Source: an uncultured Acidobacteriota bacterium
Lineage (GTDB): Bacteria; Acidobacteriota; Terriglobia; UBA7540
Direction of reading: 5' to 3'
NCBI GenBank assembly: GCA_937900045.1
Contig: CALCEB010000207.1
Span: 1,023 to 25,022, forward strand
DNA: 24,000 bases
Made by a program: the position numbers and the translations under genes
Notes under the pieces: generated by a model
Database searches by the model: none
Seen by the model: the letters and a program-made list of their open reading frames with translations, nothing else
Told to the model about the DNA's origin: nothing
Shown here: positions 5,488-7,590 of the stretch, one piece after another
Position numbering within the stretch: position 1 is the first letter of the stretch
Layout: each line of letters starts with the position of its first letter

Positions 5488-7590
5488 ATGCCAAGAGTTA
5501 AAAGTCAGCGTGCAATGAAGTATTTCGATAGCGCCTTATGCCAAGTGGCGGGGGCGACTTATAACGCCATTCAATTCTTTAACAAATACAAGCCGAACCC
5601 GACTTTCACGCCAAAATGGTCGGAGAAACCGCTCCTGAAGTCGTGGGAGAAGACCAAGCCTCCGCTCGGATGGCCGCGAGAGACAGATTCGCTCTGTCCG
5701 GGATGCGTGAAGGAAGCGCGAGACCGCATCATGAACGGCGAGCAGGATCTCAGCACTCTGATGAACGAAAAGGTAGGGGAGATCAAGGCCAAGATTATTG
5801 AGCGTGACGGCCAAGTATGGATGGTGAAAGATTGTCCGATTCACGGCCGCTACGAGGACATGATGGCGGTGGATGTGAACTTCCTTTCCTGGATTGAGAA
5901 GAACTTTCCGGGCCGTGACATCCGCGCCCACAATGACGAGGGCCTTCACAATCATGGGTCCAGCAGCATCAAGCATGGTCGCGGTTCGGTCCTGACGGTT
6001 GACCTGACGAACCGCTGCAACATGATGTGCGATCCATGCTTCATGGATGCGAATCAGGTGGGTTTTGTTCACGAGCTGGCCTGGGAGGACATCACGGAGA
6101 TTCTGGACAACGCTATCAAGATCAAGCCGCGGCGGCAGATGTCCGTGCAATTTTCCGGGGGCGAACCCACTATGTCGCCCTATTTTTTGGACGCCGTGCG
6201 TTATGCCCGCAAGGTTGGCTACAACAGCGTTCAGGCGGCTACCAACGGCATCGAATTCGCCAAGAGCAAAGAGTTCAGCCGCAAGGCGTTTGAGGCAGGT
6301 TTGCGCTATGCCTACCTGCAGTTTGACGGCATCGGCAACGACGCAAACAACCACCGCCAGGTCGGCAACCTGTTTGACGTGAAACTGAAGGCGATCGACA
6401 ACATGCACGAGGCGGGTATCGAAATTATCTTGGTCACGACGCTGGTGAATGGCATCAATAATGACCAAGTCGGCCCCATCATCAATTTTGCCAGGGAAAA
6501 TCCCAAGAAAATCGCCTTCATTGCCTTCCAGCCGGTTTCCTTTACCGGCCGCGATGAGGACATTACGCCGGAGCGCCGGCTGAAACAGCGTTATACACTC
6601 TCCCACATGGCCGCTGACGTGAAAAAACAAGTGGGCATCACTGAGCCGACGCGCGACTGGTTCCCGCTCTCCCTGATGGGCGCATTTTCAGACTTTGCAG
6701 ACTTGGTTCATGGTCCCCATGAAGAATTTGGACAAGTCAGTTGCGGCTGCCACCCCAACTGCGGCGTGGGCACCGCTCTGATGGTCAATAAGGAAAATAA
6801 GGAATGGGCGCCAGTACCACAATTTCTGAATATTCCCGGCTTGGTTCACGACGTCCAGCAGATTACTGATGCTGCCCGCAGCAAAGGCTTCTCCAACTTC
6901 ATGATGGGGCTGGCATTGCTCAAGAATTATAAGCCCTTCAAAGCCCCACCCAGCCTGGCGCTGTGGGACATCCTCAAGAAGTTTGACAAGTCTTTTGCGC
7001 TGACGGGCGATGCGGACAAAAAATACGGAGCTTCCGGTCCGCACCGCACCATCGAGGACACGATGAAGCGCCGTTCCGATCCTTGGAACTTCCTATTCAT
7101 CGCGGGTATGTGGTTCCAGGACCTGTTCAATTACGACTTCCGCCGGACGGAAATGTGCATCATTCCTTATGCCACGCAGCAAGGAGAAATCTCCTTCTGC
7201 GCTTACAATACCGGCATCGGCTGGCGGAAAATCATTGAAAACATGTACAAAAACGCCACCGTGGCGGAATGGTACAAGACCCACGGCAAGCACGAAATTT
7301 ATGCCCGTGGAAAGAAAGTTCAGCTTGAAAATTACGAGCATTCGTTGTATGTTAATTCTGAGGATGCAAACCGTGTCCGCGAGCGGTCAAACGACAACGT
7401 CCCGATGACTGCGGCGGAAGAGGAAAAGCGTCGCCGCAAAGCAGCGTGGGAAGCGCAGCAGGCCCGGCAGCTCTACGAAGAGCTAGTCCTCAAGAAGAAA
7501 GCTCCTGAGCTCGTTCAGATCGGCGGAGCAAAGAGTGCAGGCGTTGAGGTTTCTGCAACACCTGCTGAGGTTGAGAAAGTAAGCGTTTAA
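5488..7590 (+). CDS. Radical SAM enzyme, 700 aa, with multiple Fe-S clusters; putative tetraether / membrane-spanning lipid synthase (Tes/GDGT-MAS, MJ0619-like family)
   Basis: GAGGT RBS lies 8 nt before the ATG. The CX3CX2C motif is in [12 protein letters not shown] (C177/C181/C184), and the GGEPT SAM-binding motif is at aa 224-228. An N-terminal knuckle reads SLCPGC...KDCPIHG (C70, C73, C116, H119). Auxiliary cysteines are SCGCHPNCG (C419/C421/C425), MCIIPY (C557) and FCAYN (C571). The last roughly 80 aa form a charged K/E/R/A-rich tail. The subfamily call rests on remembered family architecture, not on an alignment. Confidence 0.9.

Follow-up and report, generated by a model that had tools for sequence, protein, structure and literature searches.

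We analyzed a 24,000-nucleotide stretch of DNA from an uncultured soil acidobacterium (hereafter, the window) and, within it, a gene on the forward strand (positions 5488..7590) that an initial annotation had read as a bacterial homologue of the archaeal tetraether lipid synthase (Tes or GDGT-MAS). By sequence profile and predicted fold, the gene product is a radical-SAM enzyme (SAM, S-adenosylmethionine) of the Tes/GDGT-MAS superfamily. As judged from its sequence, however, it is not a canonical Tes: the site of the N-terminal cluster is absent, the score on the Tes model lies below the curated cut-off, and the chain is extended at both its N- and C-termini. Sequence comparison places the protein in a tight 'long' bacterial subfamily of ~680–720 amino acids (aa), found mainly in Acidobacteriota, and divides the bacterial 'Tes homologues' into at least three architectural types: a canonical type with four metal sites, the long type that lacks the N-terminal cluster and has the catalytic cluster, and a type from Acidobacteriaceae without both auxiliary clusters. 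The term 'bacterial Tes homologue' therefore does not denote a single thing.

The brGDGTs (branched glycerol dialkyl glycerol tetraethers) are the basis of palaeotemperature and pH proxies in wide use, and we know of no demonstration of the enzyme that joins their two alkyl chains in aerobic Acidobacteria. The idea that bacterial Tes homologues take part in brGDGT synthesis was already published in 2022, and the gene is a further member of a very abundant family; since the candidate had been proposed, the gene itself is no discovery. What is new here is the architectural distinction, namely the loss of the N-terminal cluster, the equivalog score below the cut-off and the three bacterial types. 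Surveys in which any BLAST match to Tes counts towards brGDGT potential lump these types together. Should the long type prove to be the synthase, it would provide a precise marker gene for environmental brGDGT producers, and the N-terminal cluster would be dispensable for Csp3–Csp3 coupling.

Fold and metal sites of the gene product

The coding sequence (5488..7590, forward strand) starts with an ATG and encodes 700 aa in an intact frame. A Shine-Dalgarno sequence, GAGG, lies 9 nt 5' of the ATG (5475–5478), and homologue alignments begin at residue 1 of the protein. Profile, structure and fold searches all pointed to the same family. The Pfam scan recognised Radical_SAM (PF04055), whose score of 64 bits exceeds the cut-off of 29.5, and the top NCBIfam model was the Tes equivalog NF045702 (InterPro superfamily IPR034474; E = 1.1e-93), which aligned from aa 66 to 589 and covered profile positions 2–484 of 486. 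The score on this model was 314.5 bits, below its curated equivalog cut-off of 450. Among solved structures, the sole full-length relative was GDGT-MAS (7TOL; E = 7.6e-61, aa 98–599), and the next sequence match in the PDB was MoaA (E = 4e-9).

We predicted the structure with AlphaFold from a 130-sequence alignment (mean predicted local distance difference test score, pLDDT, of 88.7; predicted template modelling score, pTM, of 0.88). A first model, built from 61 close homologues, had reached a pLDDT of 62 and a template modelling (TM) score of 0.69 and was replaced. When searched with Foldseek, the final model matched 7TOM/7TOL with a crystal-normalised TM score of 0.88 (E = 5e-35, root-mean-square deviation 3.2–3.9 Å, ~555 columns), and the predicted helical C-terminal domain fell inside the 7TOM alignment. 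All other fold matches covered the radical-SAM core only; those to MoaA, SkfB and PqqE had E-values of 1e-9 or weaker and query-normalised TM scores (TMq) of 0.24–0.27, and the core of the model could also be superposed on MoaA and viperin, among others.

Several other assignments were considered and rejected. Models of SPASM/twitch maturases (PqqE, SkfB, NirJ/Ahb and MoaA-like) matched the core only (~aa 168–370), with 27–74 bits against cut-offs of 265–650, and no SPASM Pfam match was found in the protein. The TrsS radical SAM (seleno)protein model NF045646 gave 214.9 bits over profile positions 12–296 of 441, against a cut-off of 490. Assignment as a pterin methylase (HMPTM) was dropped in view of the scores and the extent of domain coverage, and also because the M. 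jannaschii protein MJ0619 has been reassigned in the literature, its HMPTM assignment having been overturned by structure and assays (PMC9433317). The initial annotation had named, as the outcome that would speak against it, placement in an unrelated radical-SAM subfamily with the auxiliary cysteines unaligned. This is not what was found, because the best sequence and fold matches are Tes/GDGT-MAS and the others are confined to the core. Its description of the protein as a bacterial Tes homologue is thus supported by NF045702, 7TOL and the fold match alike.

The cysteines of the protein are at positions 18, 70, 73, 116, 177, 181, 184, 419, 421, 425, 557 and 571. They include CPGC (aa 70–73), CPIHG (aa 116–120), the radical-SAM motif CNMMCDPC (C177X3C181X2C184) and SCGCHPNCG (aa 418–426), together with C557 within MCIIPY and C571 within FCAYN; the GGEPT motif occupies aa 224–228. 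All motifs listed in the initial annotation are present where it had put them, apart from the limits of SCGCHPNCG, which had been given as 419–425. Every cysteine but C18, as well as H119 and M541, is invariant across 77 orthologues of 70–100% identity, and the motif set is therefore beyond chance.

Four sites in GDGT-MAS bind metal: a rubredoxin-like Fe (C9X2C12X20C33X2H36), a [4Fe-4S] auxiliary cluster at the N-terminal side liganded by C73, C77, C80 and a His, the radical-SAM cluster, and a C-terminal [4Fe-4S] cluster, which has a labile Met439 and whose sulfide forms a C–S intermediate (PMC9433317). Its Tyr459 lies 4.2 Å from the substrate carbon and is strictly conserved in 1000 archaeal homologues (PMC9433317). 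Using the HMMER alignment, we rebuilt residues 15–495 of MJ0619, which were then aligned to the window protein and 19 diverse full-length representatives; the cysteine ligands of the C-terminal cluster of MJ0619 were identified by conservation and not from coordinates.

In this alignment, three of the four sites are retained, and the residues concerned are invariant in the 77 orthologues. The rubredoxin-like CX2C...CX2H motif is present, with C116 and H119 aligned with C33 and H36 of MJ0619; it corresponds to the CPGC...CPIHG metal knuckle that had been noted ahead of the core. The radical-SAM cluster cysteines (C177, C181 and C184) are retained. The second cysteine set of the initial annotation proved to align with the catalytic C-terminal cluster, C425, C557, C571 and M541 corresponding to C338, C455/456, C470 and M439 of MJ0619, and Y561 aligns with Y459. 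The contacts to SAM or 5'-deoxyadenosine (5'-dA) are also kept (F185, G225, Y276, D280, R290, Q348, S351 and R355); among them, F185, R290, Q348, S351 and R355 correspond to F106, R210, Q268, S271 and R275 of MJ0619. In contrast, C73, C77, C80 and H83 of the MJ0619 N-terminal cluster align with G152, H156, S159 and K162, and no cysteine occurs between residues 116 and 177, so that the GDGT-MAS-type N-terminal auxiliary cluster is missing, a point that the initial annotation had overlooked. Of 12 canonical-type representatives, 11 had this site. The window protein has, as features of its own, an invariant cysteine pair, C419/C421, just before the ligand C425, and the invariant histidines H154 and H156. 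The Tes architecture proposed in the initial annotation therefore stands for the rubredoxin-like, radical-SAM and C-terminal cluster sites, and fails for the N-terminal [4Fe-4S] cluster; the equivalog score, too, falls short.

Taken over the whole chain, MJ0619 (7TOL, 7TOM, NF045702) and the window protein share ~28–30% identity, and both are soluble or peripheral proteins; no transmembrane segment was predicted in the 700 aa. Apart from the N-cluster ligands C73, C77 and C80, the window protein differs from MJ0619 by ~62 additional N-terminal aa, ~100 additional C-terminal aa, an insertion of 22 aa within its rubredoxin-like motif, and CxCHPNCG, with its extra cysteine pair, in place of SSHQHCG. 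The bacterial host presumably lacks archaeol, and the substrate must therefore differ from that of GDGT-MAS.

These differences are distributed along the gene as follows. The N-terminal extension (aa 1–62; 5488..5673), with a predicted long helix at aa 2–32, has no equivalent in the enzyme of M. jannaschii, as the alignment to the PDB entry begins only at aa 98 and that to the NCBIfam Tes model at aa 66; in this region, the model has a pLDDT above 90 from aa 11 onward, and residues 26–75 are conserved at 73–82% in the clade. It is followed by a rubredoxin-like mononuclear-metal domain (aa 63–126; 5674..5865; Pfam PF23545 Zn_ribbon_HMPTM, E = 6e-14) with C70, C73, C116 and H119 as putative ligands. 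A cysteine-free segment (aa 140–166; 5905..5985), which contains H154 and H156, then occupies the place of the N-terminal auxiliary [4Fe-4S] domain in the alignment to MJ0619. The radical-SAM partial TIM-barrel core spans aa 168–360 (5989..6567; PF04055, E = 2.5e-17), with CX3CX2C at nt 6016–6039 and GGE at aa 224–226. The C-terminal auxiliary-cluster and helical (putative lipid-pocket) domain, supported by the MJ0619 alignment and the 7TOM fold match, spans aa 390–600 (6655..7287); within it lie C419-x-C421-HPN-C425-G (nt 6742–6765), M541 (nt 7108–7110) and C557/Y561/C571 (nt 7156–7200). The C-terminal extension (aa 601–700; 7288..7587) begins past the end of the 7TOL alignment, and in the model it comprises a charged helix at aa 642–666 and a disordered end. 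There, the pLDDT falls below 50 from aa 677 and conservation drops from 0.57 to 0.26. The charged tail of about 80 aa that had been noticed earlier is borne out by the composition, as D, E, K and R make up 35% of the last 80 residues.

Architectural types and their distribution

A search of 1.84 billion cluster representatives returned 565 matches at E ≤ 1e-30, and more than 8000 database proteins match the window protein. Some records of the Joint Genome Institute (JGI) already bear the name 'tetraether lipid synthase', and several call homologues '7,8-dihydro-6-hydroxymethylpterin dimethyltransferase'. An identical protein is recorded on a contig of a metagenome-assembled genome (MAG), and the nearest named relatives (95% identity) are Terriglobia. 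In GTDB contigs, taken as one genome per species, at least 598 stretches encode a relative, and the best 80 of these, all from MAGs, were used for the locus analyses. These 80 are 70–84% identical to the window protein and come from Terriglobia, Acidiferrales, Solibacteraceae, Pyrinomonadaceae/Blastocatellia, Chloracidobacterium and several independent Gemmatimonadota MAGs. Soil-MAG contigs with orthologues of 71–77% identity also carried odd taxon labels (Saccharimonadales, Udaeobacter, Verrucomicrobiia, Acidimicrobiia or Xenobia, among L036, L037, L049, L019 and L008), which more likely reflect mis-binning than real transfer.

A rough neighbour-joining tree separated a canonical group that includes MJ0619 from a group without the N-terminal cluster; within the latter, the clade of the window protein was tight and had the shortest branches of the family tree. 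The identity of 70–84% across acidobacterial classes and Gemmatimonadota, the matches in at least 598 species and these short branches indicate strong purifying selection at the sequence level. The separation was also seen in the profile scores. The window protein and its nearest representatives (P0121 and P0128), all without the N-terminal cluster, scored 299–414 bits on the Tes model, whereas canonical-type bacterial representatives of ~500–550 aa with all four sites scored 516–593 bits.

The canonical bacterial type (Acid_5929; Ca. Koribacter versatilis; P0166, P0170, P0171 and P0175) shares with the window protein the superfamily, the occurrence in Acidobacteria and the proposed brGDGT/iso-diabolic chemistry. 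Unlike the window protein, it has four metal sites including a CX3CX2C...H N-terminal cluster; it is 34–37% identical to the window protein and lies on the other main branch of the tree.

The Terriglobus roseus type (P0132, WP_014786616.1; ~620 aa, 41% identity) belongs to the same branch without the N-terminal cluster as the window protein and keeps the rubredoxin-like and radical-SAM sites. It differs by the loss of the C-terminal cluster cysteines in essentially all 112 sequences and by the replacement of Y561 with V in 109 of the 112. Because the T. roseus copy is flanked by genes for a TrwC relaxase, TraG/TrwB coupling protein, two integrases, ParA and a replication protein (L085/L086, 10001–11875), it is cargo of a conjugative element. 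A further relative, P0139, lacks the CX3CX2C motif.

Named members of the long type can be sought among the published homologues. For example, two Solibacter usitatus homologues of MA_1486 have been listed (Halamka 2022, Table S5), namely Acid_5929 (545 aa, 40.2% identity, 1e-139) and Acid_2410 (714 aa, 30.1%, 4e-62) (PMC10087280). Acid_2410 (Q025C7) is close to the window protein both in length (714 versus 700 aa) and in its distance to archaeal Tes (E = 4e-62 to MA_1486 versus 7.6e-61 to MJ0619), and a Solibacteraceae MAG orthologue (L043) is 73% identical to the window protein; there is also a cluster of relatives of 713–714 aa. By its length and distance, Acid_2410 probably belongs to the long subfamily. 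Zeng 2022 reported 456 bacterial Tes homologues, proposed their role in brGDGT synthesis, and gave identities to archaeal Tes of 42% for Koribacter, 40% for Solibacter and 32% (4e-61) for E. aggregans, a producer of brGDGT-Ia for which a single Tes homologue was reported (PMC8941075). From its identity and E-value, we infer that the E. aggregans homologue fits the distant long type.

Mss of Thermotoga maritima and Thermoanaerobacter ethanolicus, reported as a different family, is a functional analogue: it is a radical-SAM enzyme for which tail-to-tail joining of two fatty-acyl tails into diabolic acids has been shown by experiment. Its mechanism has been postulated to be the same cluster-dependent one (PMC13459092). 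Mss is reported from anaerobes only; Sahonero-Canavesi 2022, who identified it, found that Thermotoga and Thermoanaerobacter have no Tes homologue and that the screened acidobacterial genomes have no mss homologue (PMC13159169).

Proposed reaction and its alternatives

We consider it slightly more probable than its contrary that the window protein, as a Tes-type enzyme, couples the terminal carbons of two lipid tails, here iso-C15 chains, into iso-diabolic-type membrane-spanning lipids without the N-terminal cluster, the substrate and product being assigned by analogy. On the model of GDGT-MAS, the cluster held by C177, C181 and C184 would cleave SAM to a 5'-deoxyadenosyl radical, which would remove a hydrogen from the terminal carbon of one lipid tail within a hydrophobic tunnel. 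The resulting lipid radical could be held as a C–S adduct on the C-terminal [4Fe-4S] cluster (C425, C557, C571 and the labile M541) until a second SAM generates a radical on the second tail, which would attack the adduct carbon and form the Csp3–Csp3 bond. In an acidobacterium, the likely substrates would be iso-C15 acyl or alkyl chains of glycerolipids, and the likely products iso-diabolic-acid-type membrane-spanning tetraesters or brGDGT cores. GDGT-MAS has been reported to bind bacterial ester phospholipids (PMC9433317). The literature adds correlative evidence, in that brGDGTs or iso-diabolic tetraesters are produced by acidobacteria that carry Tes homologues (PMC8941075, PMC10087280, PMC13023045); the support added since then, for K. 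versatilis tetraesters, is likewise correlative (via PMC13023045). As the surface-exposed N-terminal cluster is absent, electron delivery must differ from that of the archaeal enzyme; the rubredoxin-like site, the segment with the invariant His154 and His156, or an external partner could provide the route.

Tentatively, we further propose that in aerobic soil bacteria iso-C15 chains may be coupled into iso-diabolic or brGDGT cores by the long subfamily, as the acidobacterial enzyme passed on by vertical inheritance, and not by the canonical paralogue. Under this proposal, the loss of the surface-exposed N-terminal [4Fe-4S] cluster and the gain of a cysteine pair at the catalytic cluster might be an adaptation of Tes chemistry to oxic life.

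A number of observations weigh against assigning membrane-spanning-lipid synthesis to the long type. Its members fall under the equivalog cut-off that the canonical bacterial type exceeds, and they lack the N-terminal ligands described above. S. usitatus holds both types, and its canonical paralogue, Acid_5929, is the closer one to archaeal Tes. No neighbour was conserved in all 80 related loci by clustering of open reading frames (ORFs), and no conserved lipid gene was adjacent. Orthologues are also carried by Gemmatimonadota, a phylum in which, to our knowledge, membrane-spanning lipids have not been reported. The published hypothesis favours the canonical-type Acid_5929 over the long type (PMC10087280). 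By stringent criteria, only 3 of 14 acidobacteria that produce iso-diabolic acid had Tes homologues (Sahonero-Canavesi 2022; PMC13159169), and bacterial Tes homologues were still described as experimentally unconfirmed in 2025 (PMC11868695).

As the main alternative, the protein might use the same fold and radical chemistry for a different lipid reaction, such as intramolecular macrocyclisation, chain–chain cross-linking as in Gms, ring formation, or C–S chemistry on another isoprenoid or acyl substrate, with the canonical paralogue (the Acid_5929/Koribacter type) as the real membrane-spanning-lipid synthase. The two types form separate groups in both the tree and the metal-site table, only the canonical one lies above the Tes cut-off, and S. 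usitatus keeps both; the extra invariant C419/C421 and H154/H156, the extensions at the N- and C-termini, and the second radical-SAM/SPASM-like gene adjacent in some Gemmatimonadota and Terriglobia loci would fit a distinct reaction as well. However, all residues known to lie near the substrate carbon and the catalytic cluster of GDGT-MAS are retained, E. aggregans makes brGDGT-Ia with reportedly one homologue of the distant type, and in GDGT-MAS a single active site already serves for intramolecular as well as intermolecular coupling (PMC9433317). On balance, we regard this alternative as rather unlikely.

A substrate other than a lipid appears very improbable. The protein might then be a peptide or cofactor maturase of the SPASM/twitch or MoaA/PqqE kind, or an HMPTM pterin methyltransferase, as the JGI names of some homologues and the weak matches to MoaA, NirJ, AhbC/D and PqqE might suggest. 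Those matches, however, span only ~190 core residues, with 40–74 bits where the cut-offs are 265–650, no SPASM/twitch domain is present, the C-terminal half matches the lipid-pocket and cluster domain of GDGT-MAS, and the pterin assignment was overturned for MJ0619 itself, as mentioned above. Neither precursor-peptide nor cofactor-pathway genes were found near the gene. It is scarcely credible that we are dealing with a decaying paralogue, or with a non-catalytic one whose product has a regulatory or structural role or is a pseudo-enzyme. Such a fate has precedents in the sister T. roseus type, which has degenerated at the C-terminal cluster and Y561 and has a copy on a conjugative element, and in P0139 with its lost CX3CX2C; the window gene, on the other hand, has all catalytic residues invariant in the 77 orthologues, the shortest branches in the family tree, an intact ORF, a Shine-Dalgarno sequence, and a conserved leader and terminator. 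The preferred reading remains the coupling of two lipid tails.

Genomic context

The gene lies between alaS (871–3981, reverse strand) and tadA (7676–8170), the latter followed by tRNA-Ser(CGA). It is a monocistronic unit with a conserved leader of ~390 nt and a strong terminator. The remainder of the window contains short-chain dehydrogenases/reductases, insertion sequence (IS) fragments, metK-ahcY, TldD/PmbA and Tad-pilus genes. In agreement with the initial annotation, no lipid genes were found beside the gene or anywhere else in the 24-kb window. Its description as an 'orphan' holds for this local setting, in which the gene stands alone, and does not hold for the family, given the number of database homologues.

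The gap between alaS and the gene (3982–5487, 1506 nt) had been described as 1.5 kb of non-coding DNA, and our searches agree with this. No conserved ORF and no ORF with a Pfam match was found in it, Rfam searches at the gathering threshold and at E ≤ 1 returned nothing credible, and its repeats were trivial only. A tblastn search of the gap with all neighbour proteins of the 80 loci found no gene remnants and returned only the N-terminus of the gene's own product. The distal part (3982..5095) is unexplained non-coding DNA of lower G+C content (~51%) that is not common to relatives, with only a 52-nt match among 87 related loci; the upstream neighbour in a close relative is a different one (MoxR/DUF58). 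The proximal part (5096..5487, forward strand) is a conserved leader or promoter region with 73% nucleotide identity over 392 nt to L081–L083, relatives whose protein is 95% identical, and it includes the Shine-Dalgarno sequence and a palindrome, TAACCCTTGGGTTA (5202–5215). The palindrome occurs once in the window, where none is expected by chance, and is confined to the closest relatives rather than family-wide. On the basis of this conservation, the leader and palindrome could have a regulatory role, for example as an operator or leader RNA. An ORF at 5051–5470 (139 aa, ending 17 nt 5' of the gene) might have encoded a small protein co-transcribed with it, but this was rejected; the ORF has no Pfam match, and since stops interrupt every frame of the region in L081 despite the conserved DNA, the leader region is non-coding.

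Downstream of the gene, in an intrinsic terminator (7610..7652, forward strand), a G+C-rich stem of 13 bp closed by a 7-nt loop precedes a T-tract (ΔG = –24.2 kcal/mol, z = –4.7 for 7610–7642). None of 200 shuffled sequences was as stable, and L081 keeps the stem through one compensatory T>C / A>G pair; the strong terminator of the initial annotation is thereby corroborated. Around the terminator and the start of tadA, positions 7580–7690 of the window were ~97% identical to L081 10093–10222 over the first 100 columns, compared with ~85% for coding sequence.

The recurrent neighbours in the 80 related loci were lineage-specific. The most frequent was an uncharacterised ~388-aa protein (33 of 80), and the others were housekeeping genes (QueG, PGM, RelA, RidA and FtsB); these neighbours have no link to lipids, and the window contains none of them. 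The ~388-aa protein (e.g. L020 6500–7666) is encoded 220–430 nt upstream of the orthologue on the same strand, in Acidiferrales-type lineages; it has no Pfam match, and its N- and C-terminal parts are conserved around a low-complexity middle.

In four Gemmatimonadota loci (L048 6526–7776, L061 2310–3491, L063 6537–7706 and L068 6451–7728), the gene immediately upstream of the orthologue encodes a second, generic radical-SAM/SPASM-like protein of ~390 aa, and a second radical-SAM/SPASM-like gene lies downstream of it in two Terriglobia loci (L002 4956–6587 and L027 11620–12669). It is possible that this adjacent protein is a partner enzyme. At one locus only, on the chromosome-sized L087 (6.4 Mb; 12336–21182), the orthologue lies 5–9 kb from Fe-S assembly genes, ThiC and an operon for branched-chain 2-oxoacid dehydrogenase E1a/E1b/E2, an enzyme that is the source of iso-fatty-acid primers.

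Further features of the window were also noted. A pair of genes for SAM synthetase (metK) and S-adenosylhomocysteine hydrolase (ahcY) lies 7 kb downstream of the gene (14864–17361, forward strand), followed by TldD/PmbA (17507–20402, forward strand); the proximity of metK-ahcY is probably coincidental, as the pairing is absent from related loci. Transposase remnants comprise an IS4/5 DUF4096 fragment (279–764, reverse strand) and an ISAZ013-type DDE domain (13997–14749, forward strand), and together with the unshared low-G+C gap at 3982–5095 they suggest local rearrangement. The alaS product is unusually long (1036 aa) and is matched by the alaS model in two stretches, with an insert of ~150 aa around aa 386–530 between the catalytic and editing parts. 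Finally, a gene at 11821–13203 (reverse strand) encodes a 460-aa protein that combines a QueG/reductive-dehalogenase-like double-cluster ferredoxin domain, scoring far under the QueG cut-off, with a C-terminal SCP2 lipid-carrier domain; it is adjoined by genes for a MarR regulator and a muconolactone-isomerase-like protein (11406–11795 and 13224–13706).

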